Shown here: one piece after another, positions 21,001-42,000 of the stretch
How positions within the stretch are numbered: the stretch's first letter is position 1
Layout: every line of letters starts with the position of its first letter
Assembly: GCA_963678065.2 (NCBI GenBank)
Contig: CAXXVZ010000003.1
Span: forward strand, 160,001-224,000
DNA from: Treponemataceae bacterium
Lineage (GTDB): Bacteria > Spirochaetota > Spirochaetia > Treponematales > Rectinemataceae
Length of the DNA: 64,000 nt
Direction: 5' to 3'
Made by a program: the position numbers

Positions 21001-24000
21001 TGGACGAAGCCCCTGAGCCAGGACTTGGCGGCGCCGCGCCCCTACTCTGTGTTTCCGAGTCTTTACTACACCTCTCGCCTCGCAAAACTGCCGGACGGCG
21101 TGCCGCAACGGTATCTTCCGGGGTATCCTCCGCCCGACATCATGGACCGACTTCCGGTGATCGCGAACAATCAGATTCTCGCGTTCTACGGCAGCCCCAT
21201 TTCCAAGAAGATGGGCATCCTCGGAGTCTACCCCAAGGAAGAGCTGACGAAGATGCTCCTCGAGTACGCGCGGCTCTACGACGACGCCAACGGCCCCCTC
21301 GGGGTCGTTCCGGCGTTCTACCTTATATATGGAACATGTTGGCCCAAAGGCGAAATCGGCTATCTCGACGATTCCATCGCTGAAGAGTATATCCGCTACG
21401 CCGCGGAGCGTGGCATCATCGTCTTCATCGACCACCAGATCGGCCGGTATTCAGTCGAGGCATCCATGAGCCGCATACTGCCCTTCCTCAAGTATCCCAA
21501 CGTGCATCTGGCCATCGATCCTGAATGGAGAACCCTGAAACCCATGCAGGAGATCGGTTCGATCACGGCCGCGGAACTCAACGCCGCGCAGAGGCAGATG
21601 CAGGACTATATTGTCGCGAACAATATTCCGGGACTGCGGATGCTCGTCGTCCATCAGTTCCAGGACAGGATGATCACGGAGCGGGAAACGGTGAGGGCGG
21701 ATTTTGACCGGATTCTCCTCATCCATACCGCCGACGGATTCGGTTCGCCAGCGCTCAAAAGACACTCCTACGCGCAAAACGCCAAGGCGGCGAACATTCC
21801 CCTCAAGGGTTTTAAACTGTTTTTCAAATCCGGAGTTCCGGGGGCGGGATTCGACGAACCTCTCCTGTCCCCTCCCGAGGTTCTGGCCCTCGATCCGGAA
21901 CCGGTCTTGGTGATGTATCAGTAGTTTTCGGAAAGGAATGACGATATGTTACGGGAAAGCATGTCTGGAACGGAGTCGATTCCGGGCCACGGCATCACGG
22001 AACCGCGACCTTGTGCATAGAGGAGGCTTCTGTATGAAGGCTGGGCGACTGAAGATAGTATGCTGTGTGTTTGCAGCTTTTGTTTGTTCCGTGCCGCTCA
22101 TGGCCTACGACCCTCCTGCGGGCGCCGTGTATGTTCCCGCCCTGACCGCTCCGGGGACTCTCGTCTCGTCGGGCAGCGACACCGGCTCGGGAACGGAGGC
22201 GGCCCTCGATCCCTCCTCGAGCGCAAACCCCGCATGGCAGGCCGGAGCCCGCCTGAAGCGGCTCGACGCGGCCTATCTCGGCCTTACGGACTGGGGCGTC
22301 GCGACTCAGGGCTGGGGTTCGGCGGCATCCCTGTCCTACACGCTTCCCAAAGCCTATGGTGTCTGGGGATTCGGACTCCGTTTCCTGTCCGTTCCCAGCG
22401 CCATGACTCAGCTCCCTCTCGGGACCTTCGGGGAAGGGCGGGTTTCCTTTGCCAAGCAGGTGTTCTCCAACCTGGCCCTCGGAGCGGGAGTCTCCGCGCA
22501 GGCAGGTGGCAATGGAAGTTTCGGATGGGGCGCGGGTCTCGACCTCGGGTTCCGGCACGACATCGGCGACGCGGGATTCCTGAAGGCCCTGAGCTGGGGA
22601 ATGTCACTCTCCACCATCGGCAAAGGTTTCTCCTACGCGATACCCTCCCCTGTAAACGGCGTCTTCGGCACGGCTGCGACAGCCATCACGACACCCTTCA
22701 CCCTCGGCATCGAGGCGCGGGGCTTCCTCGTGAGGACAGAAAACTGGCGCATCGGCCTCGGCCTCGGCCTCTCGACTCCAGGTTTCGGCGACCTCGATTT
22801 CAAGGCCGACCTCGGCATCGGGTATAGGGATATCTTCTCTCTCGGCGTCGGCTGGGACGCAGGGCTCAAGGATCTTCGCGCGACAACGAGCCGGAGCCTT
22901 CTGCCCTCGGTGGGGCTCTCGGTCACCATCCCCCTCGCCGGAAACGGTTCGCCCGAGGCCCCCGGCTCGATCACGACCTCGGCGGCCTACGCTCCCCTGT
23001 ACGGCGACGTATCCGCTGTCGGCGGAGGAGTCGGCATCACTTTCGGAAAACGCGACAAGTCAGCGCCCTCTGTCACCCTCGATCTCCCTGGTGCCCCGCA
23101 CGAAACCTACTACCTCTCTCCCAACGGCGACAATGTCCAAGACAGTCTCGAGATTCCTGTCCGCGTGAGCGACGAAGGCTACCTCGCGGGATGGTCCTTC
23201 AGGGTCGAAGACAAGGCCGCCGGAAAAATGATCTTCCACAAGGAGGTCGAGCGAAAGCTTCCCGACCATTTGGCGGGAGCCTCCAGCCTCGCCGAGGGAC
23301 TTGGCTACGTGAGGGCCAGTCTTCCCGTGCCGGCAAAACTTGTGTGGAACGGCTACACCGACGAGGGCAGGCGTGCCCCGAACGGCGCCTATCTCGTCAG
23401 CTTCGAGGCCTGGGACGACGAGGGGCGCCGCAATGCCGACTACATCAACTGCCTTACCGTCGTCGTCGACAACGACGCGCCGAAGGTCTCCGTGTCCGGC
23501 ATCGACAAGAACAACATTTTCAGCCCCGACGGGGACGGCATCCGCGAAAGCATCCAGTTCCGCCTCGGTGGATCCGTGGAGAAGCTCTGGAAACTCGATA
23601 TCCAGGACAAGGACGGATCCGTCGTCAGGACGGAAAAGTGGCCAAACCAATCGCCTCCCGATTTTGTGTGGGACGGAACCGACGACAAGGGCACCGTTGT
23701 GCCGGACGGCACCTACTCCCTCCATCTCTCCGCGTCCAAGGAATCGGGCTTCGCTGCCGCGAAGACGATCGAGGGCATCGTAGTCGACACCCGCAGGCCG
23801 GCTGTCGCCGTCGAGCTCGTCGGCAATATCATGAGTCCCAACGGAGACGGAAAGAAAGATTCCATTGTAATCAGACCCAAACTCGAATCGAAGTCCGGAC
23901 TGGAGAAGTTCCGGGTCTTCGTGCTCGACGTGGACAGGAAGGAAGTCTGGTCGGTGTCCGGAACCGATCCTGCACGGCTCCTCGATTCCTACACGTTCAC

Positions 24001-39000: not shown

Positions 39001-42000
39001 CGTCGGCAAGATGCTCGGCTACTCGGAGGCCCGGATCAACACCGAGGAGACGAAGGAACTCATCCCTCTCTCCACGGGACGCGCCGAACTCGTGCGCAAG
39101 CTCCTCGTCGAAGACAATGTCGATGCACGCAGGCTTTCGGTGAAGGGGCTCGGCTCCAGCGAGCCTGTCGTCAGCTTCCGCGACGCGAGCAACAGGTGGA
39201 AAAACAGGAGGGTCGAGTTCATCCTTATAAAGAATTAGTGTAAAGCTTGTTCTGAGACACACGACGGCCGCTCCCGAGCCTTGGCAGAGGAGTGGCCGTC
39301 GTGTATCCGGTCAGAAATCTCCCGCCATGATTATTTCCGGTTCGAGTGTGAAACCGAGTTTTTCTCTCACTTCGTCCTGTGCGAGGCGGATGAGGAGCCT
39401 CATATCGCTCGCCCTGGCCACGCCTGCGTTGACGAAGATGTTGGCGTGCCAGTCGGAGACGGCGGCATCCCCGATCCTTTTACCCCTGAAGCCGAGCGAG
39501 TCGAGGACGGCTCCGCTCGGCGCGCCTATCAGTCTGTCGTTCTTGAAGACCGAGCCGGCGGAGGGAAGGCGGTAATGCCCCTTGCGCTCCCTGTCCGTCC
39601 GGCGCTCGCGCATGATGCAGGCCGTGCGCGCGGGGTCTCCGGAGTCGAGCTCGAAGCTCGCTCCGAGGATGAGGCTGCCCGCGAGAGGCTCCCTGTCCTG
39701 GAAGGGGGAGCGCTTGTAGGACCATTCGGCGGGGTCGAAGGGGTGAACGAAGAGTCTGCCGTCGGGACCCGCGGCGAGAACTTCGGGGCTGAGGTCGGCG
39801 ATCTCCGTATCGTAGCAGCGCGCGTTCATGAGGATGGCCCCGCCGAGCGAGCCCGGCATGCCGGCAAAATTCCCGAAACCCTTGAGTCCGCGCGCGAGGG
39901 TTTCGAGGCAAACTTCATCCACGGAGAGACCCGCCTCCGCCGTGAAGCGCTTTCCGCGAACCGACACGGAACGGAGGTTTTCGGTGCTCGCGACGATTCC
40001 CCGGATACCGCGGTCCCCCACGAGGAGGTTCGCCCCGCCGCCGATCACGAAGACGGGGATGCCTTCCGCCCGCGCCGCTTCGAGGAGGCGGAGAAACTCC
40101 GAGCGGTTCCCGGGCGCGATCCAGGCGTCGGCGGGGCCGCCTATCCGCATCGTCGTGTGTCCCGACAGGGGCTCATCGAAGGAAGGGCGGGCCCCAATAT
40201 TGATTTTTCCGAAGAATTGCCGTAGTTTGTTCGTCATTACCCGCATAGTATGGAAGCATCTGCGGGAGATTCAAGACACCGACGGAGGACCACATGCCCG
40301 AGCTGAGACTTTTCAACACTCTGGGGCGCGAAATGCAGACATTTCGCCCCCTCGAACCCGGAAAGGTCGGCTTCTACGGCTGCGGACCCACAGTCTACAA
40401 CTTCGCCCACATAGGAAATCTGCGCGCCTACGTCTTCGACGACGTTCTCACTCGGACCCTGCGCTACTTTGGTTACGAGGTGACCCACGTCATGAATCTC
40501 ACCGATGTCGGTCACCTTTCCGGCGACGACGACACCGGCGAGGACAAGATGGTCAAGAGCGCGGTGGAGAGAAACCAGACCGTACTCGACATAGCGCGCT
40601 TCTACACCGAGGCCTTCTTCCGCGACACGGACAGGCTCGGCATCGCGAGGCCGAACGTCGTGTGCAAGGCCACCGAGCACGTCGGCGAGATGATCGCCCT
40701 CATCAAGAGAATCGAGGCTAAGGGCTTCACCTACAGTGCGGGCGGAAACCTCTACTTCGACATCACGAAGATGCCCTCCTACGGCGAGCTCGCCATGCTC
40801 AGGACCGAGGACTTGAGAGCGGGCGCGCGCATCGAGGTCGACGAGAACAAGCGCAATCCCCACGATTTCGTCCTCTGGTTCACCAAGTCCAAGTTCGAGA
40901 ATCAGGCGCTCGTCTGGGACAGCCCCTGGGGCCGTGGCTACCCCGGCTGGCACATCGAGTGCTCGGCCATGAGCATGAAATACCTCGGCGAGCAGTTCGA
41001 CATCCACGCGGGCGGCATCGACCACATCCCCGTCCACCACACGAACGAAATCGCCCAGTCCGAGGCGGCTACCGGCAAGAAATGGGTCAACTATTGGCTT
41101 CACAATGAATTCCTTGTTCTCGACAAAGGCAAGATGTCCAAGTCCGCTGGCGGCTTCCTCACTCTTCAGACCCTTGTGGACAGAGGCTACGATCCCATGG
41201 ATTACCGCTACTTCCTCCTCGGCGGTCACTACCGCTCCCAGCTCCAGTTTTCATGGGAGGGGCTCGACTCGGCCCGGTCCTCGCGCAAGTCGATGGCCGA
41301 CCGCGTCCTCGCGCTGAGGGCGAAGGCGGGGCTCGCCGGGGACGAAGTGCCGGGTCTGGCGGGTCTGTCCGAATCCGAGAGGGCCGGCCTCGCTCCGAGG
41401 CTCGAAGCCTTCGCGACGGCCCTCGGCGAGGATCTCGCGACGCCGAGGGCGCTCGCCGAGGCCTGGGCGATACTCAAGGACGGCAGCCTCCCGCCTCGCG
41501 CCGCGCTGGCCGCCGCCTTCGACATGGACCGGGTCCTCGGACTCGGGCTTGCTGCCCTCCGCCCCGCGGAGAGCAGTCTGGACTCGGGGCTTGCGACCGA
41601 AATCGAGGGCCTCATCGTCGAGCGCGCACAGGCAAAGAAGGACCGGAATTTCGCCCGGGCCGACGAGATCCGCAATGGGCTGAAGGCGAGGGGCATCATT
41701 CTCGAAGACAGCCCGGCAGGGACAGCCTGGAAACGCGCATGAGAGGCGAAGTGACTGAGCGGATCGCGTAACCACAGGGTATGTCCTTTGTTTGATACAA
41801 AAGGGAGAGAGACCACCATCGACGTAAAGAGCCTCTATGACTCGCTCATGCCGATGCTGTTTCGTGTGGCTGTTCGCATAGTCCAGTCCCCTGAAACCGC
41901 TGAGGACATTGTCCACGAGGCTTTTGTCAAGCTGGTGGAGAAAAATATTCCCTTTCCCAGCCCCGACGACGCCAAGTACTGGCTCATCAGGGTCGTGAAA

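Follow-up and report, generated by a model that had tools for sequence, protein, structure and literature searches.

A predicted outer-membrane-to-peptidoglycan tether with 48 Ig domains in a spirochaete without flagella

The gene and its product

The window analysed here, a 64,000-nucleotide stretch of a contig from a Treponemataceae bacterium, contains an open reading frame (22034..39238, + strand) whose translation runs without a stop for 5,734 residues, the length given in a preliminary description of this DNA. An in-frame ATG lies upstream at 21938; the start at 22034 sits behind an AGGAGG sequence and opens a predicted Sec signal peptide (22034..22105, +). Judging from the sequence, cleavage would fall between PLMA and YDPP, with 22106 as the start of the mature protein. 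There is no lipobox cysteine at this cut, and the mature N-terminus reads Y-D/N-P-P/A in all 27 aligned rows of the family. The preceding gene (20725..21924, +), which is conserved, nameless and syntenic with the tether gene in most family loci, had no Pfam match and fell only into unnamed spirochaete clusters in the Atlas. On the other side lies the convergent murB (39311..40246, − strand), followed by cysS and then an ECF sigma/anti-sigma pair, a neighbourhood that marks the tether gene as a syntenic orthologue.

The mature protein begins with a hatch or plug (22106..22255, +) that was delimited by the 27-row alignment and by a model of low confidence in this segment (pLDDT about 47–66). Its motif, SANPAW, includes N41 and P42, which are invariant in 27 of 27 rows; we take the NPA to be a hatch element of FadL, in line with the title of PDB entry 2r4o. 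The AlphaFold2 model of the N-terminal part then shows 14 strands (22256..23044, +) and, together with structure matches and loop lengths, predicts an outer-membrane beta-barrel of the FadL/PorV type, as had been proposed earlier. It superposes on PorV (6h3i_F) with a Z score of 26.4 and an rmsd of 3.1 over 269 aligned residues at 13% identity, and on FadL with Z scores of 24–25 (for 1t16_A, Z 24.4 and rmsd 3.5 over 267 residues). The top Foldseek match is 8gl6_F; BAM-associated barrels and FadL come close to PorV in score. No Pfam model matches the barrel, and a PDB sequence search with the N-terminal 476 residues found nothing.

There follows a tandem array of 48 Ig domains of the FlgD_ig/CHU_C type (23051..38806, +), recognized by motif count, Pfam, HMM and modelling. 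The motif SPxGD[GK] occurs 46 times, against a mean of 0.04 and a maximum of 2 in 1,000 shuffles of the protein; one degenerate unit (NPSGS) and the opening unit (SPNGDN, around residue 362) complete the 48, and an HMM built from the units returns the same number. The total agrees with the preliminary count of 47 repeat starts plus one skipped; the strict motif SPxGDG is present 39 times. Long and short domains alternate, and nearly all carry the loop SP[ND]GD[GK]xxD, whose acidic character is retained in 47 of the 48 units and which may bind Ca2+ and stiffen the chain. The last four Ig domains were modelled together with the C-terminal domain (pLDDT 89.6, pTM 0.62); the Ig model most closely resembles extended tandem-Ig rods (top Foldseek matches 6xi3, 4p99 and 2yn5). 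The C-terminal domain itself (38807..39238, +) is OmpA_C-like by alignment, by Pfam (PF00691, E 7e-12, 45.9 bits against a cut-off of 27.2) and by fold, with Z scores of 14–16 to MotB, OmpA, Pal and Tp0624 and an rmsd of 2–2.6 to the first three, which confirms its initial assignment.

Repeat growth and family distribution

Two tracts of the array are built of near-identical blocks. The first (25031..30432, +), defined by repeat comparison and read depth, holds 4.09 copies of a four-domain block of 440 residues (period 1,320 nt, identity 98.8–100%); the second (31652..36912, +), defined by repeat comparison, holds 2.71 copies of a six-domain block of 647 residues (period 1,941 nt, identity about 99%). 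Four and about three copies had been reported before, along with the concern that an assembly expansion had produced them. The near-identity of the copies and an estimated genome contamination of 6.7% would fit an assembler that had multiplied the blocks; such an artefact is, however, scarcely credible and can be regarded as largely refuted. A second strain, 98.1–98.4% identical, has equal block copy numbers and an equal total of 5,734 residues, its gene being split by a frameshift into pieces of 4,065 and 1,669 residues. Contig depth over the first block is 3.1–3.7 times that of the flank in three runs (92.5 versus 26.2, 88–93 versus 28.6 and 24 versus 6.5). The differences between copies are mostly synonymous and patterned, copy 1 resembling copy 3 and copy 2 equalling copy 4, and the identical 5,734-residue protein is present on two contigs of the genome collection. 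The array has grown by recent block duplication and homogenization.

Contrary to the first impression, the Ig-OmpA module is not limited to one spirochaete family but is phylum-wide: of 401 genomes sampled, 276 contain it. The usual count is 8 Ig domains and the range is 4 to 48, or 12-fold. Counts were taken from domains and not from open-frame lengths: certain long frames of relatives (1,585, 1,748 and 1,818 residues) contain 8-Ig proteins with mere open sequence upstream. Several host-associated or small-genome families yielded no copy of the gene, which is thus dispensable there. Our literature search, which covered mostly open-access articles and no supplementary proteomics tables, found no study of the barrel-Ig-OmpA family, and we claim no named homologue.

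Among genomes with complete proteins, the 20 with flagella have 8 (18 genomes) or 12 Ig domains (two), and the 23 without have 16 (19 genomes), 20 (three) or, in the present case, 48. That 8–12 domains go with flagella and 16–48 with flagellar loss in this spirochaete family is a new observation. The long forms constitute one clade, so the association counts as a single event; a step from 16 to 20 domains occurs at three separate places in the tree. The present genome was scored as non-flagellated because it has no flagellin and because its weak FliG match (E 1e-6, positions 24–100) resembles the secondary matches seen in flagellated genomes. We rejected the notion that long tethers serve to accommodate periplasmic flagella, since the long forms occur without flagella. 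Counts of 4, 8, 12, 16, 20 and 48 would suggest that the Ig number is always a multiple of four, a rule broken by a paralogue in the same genome, which lacks the N-terminal hatch and has 9 Ig domains by HMM; its 8 exact motifs match the repeat number originally given. A lipoprotein with a single Ig domain and the same OmpA tip is also encoded in this genome. An RNA run of a relative covered 16 of 30 bins, too little to serve as evidence of transcription. Cells of Rectinema are described as “rod-shaped” (PMC6052044).

Orientation of the chain and its tip

In the barrel model the turns following even strands have 2–3 residues (one has 9) and the loops following odd strands 3–27, and the chain exits after strand 14 on the short-turn, periplasmic face. 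Some relatives are split: barrel and Ig8-OmpA are adjacent genes, each with its own signal peptide, and strand A of Ig1 stays on the barrel protein. This form was seen in all nine short-frame loci examined and, in another count, in 8 of 80 loci; a predicted complex of the two halves scored 0.45, against 0.00 for the best control, which lends the pairing weak support. Strand topology and the signal peptides of the split halves thus support a periplasmic position of the repeats, in answer to the earlier worry that they might face outwards.

An outward-facing chain would be a surface adhesin comparable to SiiE, or to type B T9SS cargo, which PorP-like barrels anchor on the surface (PMC9143113), with a tip that binds the peptidoglycan of foreign cells or necromass. 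Adhesin extenders are indeed the structures that best match the Ig part, the repeats match CHU_C, the type B signal family, and the best match of the barrel is PorV. We nevertheless consider this very improbable: in the model the chain continues from strand 14 at its periplasmic end, the split Ig-OmpA halves have Sec signals and no barrel of their own, the pocket residue of the tip follows the MurE type of the host, and the repeat number stays at 8 throughout most of a class, whereas adhesins vary. SiiE and region II of MpAFP are likewise long Ca2+-binding Ig chains made by near-identical duplication, but they are secreted by T1SS and extracellular, whereas the present protein combines a Sec signal with a barrel of its own and a tip of wall-binding type. 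Type B cargo carries CHU_C at its terminus; here the CHU_C-like domains are internal and the C-terminus is OmpA. The profile SprA_N, for the T9SS translocon, matched none of five genomes and likewise none of 14 controls. The hatch with its NPA and the FadL/TodX fold might instead indicate a channel for hydrophobic solutes whose Ig chain passes cargo onwards, tethering being secondary, much as shuttling has been proposed for FadL-like proteins with periplasmic extensions in T. pallidum (PMC8407342). This has even less to recommend it, as the chain shows no ligand-binding domain, its end is OmpA_C and not an inner-membrane permease, and the paralogue in the same genome has no hatch.

The favoured partner of the tip, the cell's own wall, is suggested by its binding pocket. 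The conserved DAP-binding Asp, which we equate by motif position with Asp576 of PorE, is replaced by Asn (GHAN instead of GHTD); GHTD appears in one of 58 aligned OmpA domains, and that one comes from another class. GHAN or GHAV co-occurs with MurE EDPR in five of five Spirochaetia genomes and in the present one, and MurE DNPR is found in five of five genomes of other classes, where the tip has GHTD in four and a degenerate site in one. On these sequences, the pocket residue tracks the host's own wall chemistry as given by MurE type. The pocket Arg (alignment R509) is invariant in 58 of 58 rows, and its role in binding the stem-peptide carboxylate is taken from Arg591 of PorE (PMC7192894). Peptidoglycan is the putative ligand of the tip; the absence of the pocket Asp counts against this.

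Several known systems are comparable. OmpA and OprF also combine an N-terminal barrel and a C-terminal OmpA_C in one chain (PMC8824477, PMC8407342). They differ in their 8 strands (the number in the E. coli OmpA barrel, against 14 in our model), short linker and pocket Asp, where the present family has a plugged 14-strand barrel, a spacer of 4–48 Ig domains and Asn. Omp-alpha of Thermotoga is another length-bearing link between outer membrane and wall. So are Lpp and also OmpM (PMC8824477, PMC13547282, PMC13018214), and the idea of a length-setting tether is already known from Lpp; Lpp, however, is a short covalent coiled coil whose natural lengths vary little (mostly 78 residues), and not a modular spacer of 4 to 48 domains. 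PorP-PorE of the Bacteroidota T9SS links a 14-strand FadL-family barrel to peptidoglycan by OmpA_C (PMC9143113, PMC7192894), and the split treponemal form similarly consists of a barrel and a separate periplasmic OmpA_C protein. PorE, in contrast, is built as a lipoprotein of TPR and propeller domains; the bridge studied here is an Ig chain, either fused to the barrel or predicted to be completed by one of its strands. TP0548, TP0859 and TP0865 of T. pallidum, FadL-like by their published description, have a 14-strand barrel with a hatch; their C-terminal extension, presumed to be periplasmic, is a small TPR bundle of helices and contains neither an Ig chain nor an OmpA domain (PMC8407342).

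Periplasm width

We favour, with a probability of roughly 60%, a non-covalent tether from outer membrane to peptidoglycan in a flagellum-less cell whose periplasm has about twice the usual width or more. On this view the outer membrane would house the predicted 14-stranded barrel, the OmpA-like tip would hold on to the wall of the same cell, and the 48 Ig domains between them would form a semi-flexible leash through the periplasm. The number of repeats would cap the separation (at a contour of 160–215 nm) without fixing it, and shorter bridges would maintain close contact in local zones. The barrel fold, the periplasmic exit, the extended Ig chain and the OmpA_C fold are predictions. The width would on our best reading be perhaps 45–60 nm, and the length was presumably selected to reach across this wider gap.

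A rigid, Ca2+-stiffened strut of about 200 nm, holding the outer membrane at a uniform or toga-like distance, would accord with the contour length (158–216 nm at 3.3–4.5 nm per domain; PMC6272769, PMC4083281), the retained acidic loops and the resemblance to extended Ca2+-stabilized rods. It is nonetheless improbable, because another Ig rod was measured to have a persistence length of only about 10 nm (PMC4083281); an equally stiff chain of 48 domains has a computed rms span of about 55–65 nm. A pTM of 0.62 is no proof of rigid packing, and neither BamA, TolC nor the 9-Ig paralogue could span 200 nm. The anatomy, the periplasmic side and the growth by duplication that were first described are supported; a stand-off of 200 nm, as first put forward, is not.

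Of 5,604 frames, the four that carry the largest recent internal duplications are the tether, TamB, a polysaccharide-export (OPX-type) protein and a LysM-like lipoprotein, all four predicted to span the envelope. Of 26 flagellated genomes in which TamB was matched, 22 have a protein of 1,442–1,541 residues and none a longer one; six of eight complete copies from non-flagellated genomes have 1,977–2,923, and the present copy, with 2,603, has grown about 1.8-fold. The LysM-like lipoprotein, 2,071 residues long here, has 1,314 in a congener with 20 Ig domains and 1,042 and 1,056 in two with 16; this gain of about 2-fold is due in part to the fusion of two genes, which flagellated relatives carry as separate ones. 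Both increases count against a 200-nm strut. OPX frames of flagellated genomes (373–905 residues) are weak matches and at most putative orthologues. Since three unrelated, putatively gap-spanning proteins have also lengthened by recent duplication, the periplasm is likely much wider than in swimming relatives, and a link between tether length and envelope width gains independent support from these sequences. The scaling is loose: TamB is longer (2,900–2,923 residues) in 16–20-Ig genomes of g18 than in this 48-Ig genome.

Other components speak against a wide gap. BamA has five POTRA domains in both flagellated and non-flagellated groups, the TolC-family genes and the 9-Ig paralogue of this genome are of ordinary length, the one-Ig lipoprotein is a short tether, and TamB is normal in the 16-Ig relative G047 (1,416 residues); in relative G034 it has 1,493. 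TolC-family genes occur in 13 of 40 non-flagellated and 28 of 29 flagellated genomes, a loss confounded with genome size and unused as support. These components would suit a slack, near-neutral expansion of a protein that is still a periplasmic tether, in which surplus domains lie along the membrane and short paralogues hold a periplasm of ordinary width. Recombination homogenizes near-identical blocks, and Lpp length alone does not set periplasm width, a longer Lpp tilting under OmpA (PMC8824477). We think this unlikely, though less so than any other alternative: the four largest duplications are all in predicted envelope-spanning proteins of unrelated folds, the 16-to-20 step arose at three places, and both strains keep exactly the same length.

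More tentatively, and with somewhat less than even odds, the clade may after losing its periplasmic flagella have enlarged the periplasm to at least twice normal, with zones of at least 100 nm in this genus, and resized its bridges by internal duplication (the tether from 8 to 16, 20 and 48 domains, TamB, the polysaccharide conduit and the LysM-like lipoprotein). Genomes would then reveal periplasm width, and the barrel-Ig-OmpA family would represent the ancestral membrane-to-wall tether of the phylum, tunable in length. How the outer membrane of spirochaetes is attached to the wall is a matter of debate; LipL32 has been proposed in a 2026 paper, for pathogenic Leptospira alone (PMC13547282). 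The present family, whose Ig-OmpA module occurs in 276 of 401 genomes, is a concrete candidate, and with its natural series of 4 to 48 domains the ruler question can be tested directly. If the lengthening of four unrelated bridges reflects a truly wide periplasm, a cell architecture not yet described is to be expected in common anaerobic fermenters, and TamB would illustrate the way in which bridges for protein and lipid transport can be lengthened.

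The repeat array and the history of its blocks

Translation of window positions 22034-39238 (+) gives a single open reading frame of 5,734 aa, in which Pfam recognizes FlgD_ig and CHU_C domains (here Ig) across the repeats and an OmpA domain at the end; the first 500 aa have no Pfam match. The motif SPxGD[GK] occurs 46 times (39 as strict SPxGDG), against at most two in any of 1,000 shuffled proteins. Adding one degenerate unit, and the first, which bears SPNGDN, brings the total to 48 Ig units, the number also returned by an HMM derived from the units. Since two near-identical blocks are likewise present, one of 1,320 nt in 4.09 copies (block 1, 25031-30432) and one of 1,941 nt in 2.71 copies (block 2, 31652-36912), the giant repeat protein of the preliminary description is borne out. 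Directly upstream, as in most family loci, lies a conserved spirochaete gene without a Pfam match (20725-21924; approximately 60-70% identity in relatives).

That description had also raised the concern that the blocks were an assembly expansion. The tether's 90% cluster has two other members, P0001 (4,065 aa) and P0003 (1,669 aa), each encoded by a contig of 3.04 Mb, whose alignments are colinear with tether residues 1-4,060 (98.4%) and 4,066-5,734 (98.1%), respectively. Judged from these alignments, they are the two parts of a frameshift-split gene in a second strain with equal block copy numbers. In three public runs the contig depth of one block 1 copy versus its flank was 92.5 versus 26.2, 88-93 versus 28.6 and 24 versus 6.5, figures that concern block 1 only and express depth rather than copy number, and X1 and X2 may themselves be the source of the window. 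Given the second strain and the raised depth of block 1, the blocks are not an artefact.

Within block 1 of the genome under study, copies 2 and 4 are identical and a single base sets copy 1 apart from copy 3; between the two pairs there are five synonymous changes and one or two nonsynonymous ones, a pairing that matches the expectation for two rounds of doubling. Seven substitutions are common to all four block 1 copies of the second strain and occur in none of the copies studied here, which indicates concerted evolution. Tract 1 has a strong G-over-C skew of +0.43 on the coding strand (window 26001-30000); duplicated TamB genes are similarly skewed (+0.2 to +0.5), and the undoubled TamB genes of flagellated relatives are without such skew.

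Domain architecture, topology and split forms

The AlphaFold2 model of the N-terminal region (27-row alignment, mean pLDDT 78.6) places a hatch ahead of 14 barrel strands, with an Ig domain after them. The barrel best matches PorV (Z 26.4, rmsd 3.1, 269 aligned), followed by FadL and TodX (Z 24-25) and the Bacteroidota BAM-associated barrels (Z 22). The connections after its even strands measure 2, 2, 2, 3, 3 and 9 residues and those after its odd strands 8, 9, 3, 27, 5, 14 and 5. Outer-membrane barrels usually have their short turns on the periplasmic side and, as strand 14 ends on the short-turn face, the Ig chain is predicted to be periplasmic. A model of the last four Ig domains with the OmpA domain (pLDDT 89.6, pTM 0.62) is nearer to extended tandem-Ig rods than to globular multi-Ig proteins (rmsd 10-13 versus approximately 40), and the modeled tip matches MotB, OmpA, Pal and Tp0624 (Z 14-16).

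The pocket Arg of this tip is invariant in 58 aligned rows. In PorE, a pocket Asp contacts the DAP amine (PMC7192894); by motif, we equate the Asp of GHTD with that residue, and in Spirochaetia tips it is replaced by Asn or similar. The MurE motif is EDPR in the genome under study and in five of five Spirochaetia genomes, and DNPR in five of five genomes of other classes, four with GHTD in the tip and one with a degenerate site. The DNPR form of MurE corresponds to DAP and the xDPR form to ornithine. Such a pattern fits a tip adapted to its host's own wall, although it amounts to a single class-level event. The tether family probably works in an OmpA-like manner but is not OmpA, by either barrel or pocket.

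At all nine short-frame loci fetched, and at 8 of 80 further loci, the barrel and an Ig8-OmpA partner are adjacent genes, each with its own signal peptide. The split barrel ends in DTxxPxIxL, a stretch that corresponds by alignment to the opening strand of Ig1 in fused proteins; its partner begins Y[IFV]SPN, the cut falling exactly after that strand (loci L031-L035, L047-L050, L144 and L147); on a tree of 45 rows, two changes of state between split and fused are required. These junctions suggest that the split barrel may donate a strand to its partner (donor-strand complementation). The predicted barrel-partner complex scores 0.45 versus 0.00 for the best control, with at least 92% of contacts shared between runs and partner pLDDT of at least 74. 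Of the solved pairs 116 of 157 reach the score mark, as do 2 of 215 mismatched ones; scores up to 0.60 include only 18 solved pairs along with both mismatches, and split-gene halves tend to pass. The prediction lends weak support to strand donation.

Distribution, repeat number and other lengthened proteins

The window gene is the syntenic orthologue within its family, and the barrel occurs in 66 of the 68 other family genomes. The protein is not restricted to one spirochaete family: the Ig-OmpA-end profile is present in 276 of 401 genomes sampled from the phylum (the barrel in 71). This profile was not found in 16, 3, 8 and 34 genomes of families f6, f7, f12 and f28, nor in the 1.1-Mb genome G156. 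The usual Ig count in Spirochaetia is eight, and other classes have barrel-plus-4-Ig and 8-Ig forms. One f23 genome encodes a barrel-less form consisting of a signal peptide, four Ig and a degenerate OmpA domain (L174:1495-3270, -); no barrel gene was found within 5 kb upstream. Atlas clusters combining the barrel, Ig and OmpA families in other phyla serve as leads only. Three Treponema sp. records (L145, L146, L149) have a 4-Ig version of 944-957 aa that has lost middle domains 3-6. The tether is genuine and an extreme case within a hitherto unstudied family that extends across the phylum.

Flagellin is present in 29 of 69 family genomes, the same 29 that have strong FliG matches; neither was found in the genome under study. 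We fetched the tether gene from 54 relatives out of the 66 with a match (42 complete, 11 cut at contig ends, 1 frameshifted). Once raw counts of 9 or 17, in which Ig1 had scored twice, were merged, complete tethers had 8 (18 cases) or 12 Ig (two) in flagellated genomes and 16 (19 cases) or 20 (three) in non-flagellated ones, to which the 48 described here are added. In a quick tree the long tethers form one clade (SH-aLRT 100), in which the window protein and its own paralogue branch first and the 20-Ig forms sit at three places. Seven non-flagellated copies are broken inside the Ig array, and further giants may therefore be hidden.

Only 7 of 5,604 frames (at least 300 aa) in the genome have at least 100 duplicated 25-mers. 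The top four are the tether, a polysaccharide-export (OPX) protein, a LysM-like lipoprotein and TamB; of the remaining three, labeled by eye, one is the antisense shadow of the lipoprotein, one is an Ig-rich lipoprotein and one is probably a restriction specificity subunit. TamB (2,603 aa; C3:925026-932837, -; L210:5030-12838) lies upstream of a 5-POTRA BamA and has a 1,448-nt internal duplication (99.3%). In flagellated relatives its frames measure 1,442-1,541 aa in 22 of 26 genomes with a match and are shorter in four. Among 34 non-flagellated matches, 15 were examined (eight complete, six cut at contig ends, one unresolved), and the complete ones measure 2,603, 2,923, 2,923, 2,900, 1,993, 1,977, 1,493 and 1,416 aa. 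The long copies contain internal duplications, older ones in the case of g18 (2,900-2,923 aa). The Wza-like OPX protein, with Poly_export and SLBB repeats (3,585-aa frame; C3:287918-298675, L231), has a 3,712-nt duplication at 99.7% with a period of 2,529 nt, and frames of 2,300-2,700 aa occur in several non-flagellated relatives. The helical lipoprotein (2,071 aa, approximately nine repeats; C3:1628765-1634995, L232), which we take to resemble TmpA/TmpB and BB0323, has its LysM-like domain at the end; it owes the LysM label to weak PDB matches (E 0.003) and has no Pfam match. Its flagellated counterpart is two adjacent genes (approximately 390 and 235-305 aa) at five of seven loci fetched. 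A single fusion takes their place in non-flagellated genomes, measuring 835-1,056 aa in five with 16 Ig and 1,314 aa in one with 20 Ig; another seven non-flagellated loci are cut or gapped. A lipoprotein-like frame of 1,102 aa (C3:2370971-2374279, L233) has three identical 351-nt repeats, Calx-beta-like by eye.

Reach of the chain and width of the periplasm

The 53 domains of SiiE span 175 nm, or 3.3 nm per domain (PMC6272769), and another Ig rod has 4.5 nm per domain and a persistence length of approximately 9.6 nm (PMC4083281). With these borrowed values, the contour of the 48-Ig chain is 158-216 nm and its root-mean-square reach only 54-63 nm. The latter argues against the earlier proposal of a ruler holding the outer membrane approximately 200 nm off the wall, as does the ordinary size of shorter bridges. 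If such a spacing were uniform, the genome would hardly have kept its TolC-family genes, a BamA with five POTRA domains, as in a flagellated relative, or the shorter tethers. One of these is the paralogue at C5:109267-114240 (L090), a long-branched sister of the window protein, in which the HMM finds nine Ig and not the eight first counted; its barrel is without the YDPP/NPA hatch and is possibly an open pore. Another, a lipoprotein (C4:224058-225812, L209), combines a single Ig with a long linker rich in Pro, Thr and Ala and shares the OmpA-like tip; it is predicted to be a Pal-like third tether. Furthermore, TamB has grown approximately 1.8-fold versus 6-fold for the tether, and a relative with 16 Ig (G047) has a normal TamB. 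In Escherichia coli, long Lpp tilts under shorter tethers, and width is not fixed by Lpp length alone (PMC8824477).

The likeliest role of the giant tether is that of a flexible leash in the periplasm. Its length, together with the lengthened TamB, OPX protein and LysM-like lipoprotein, points to a widened, probably uneven periplasm in the flagellum-less clade.
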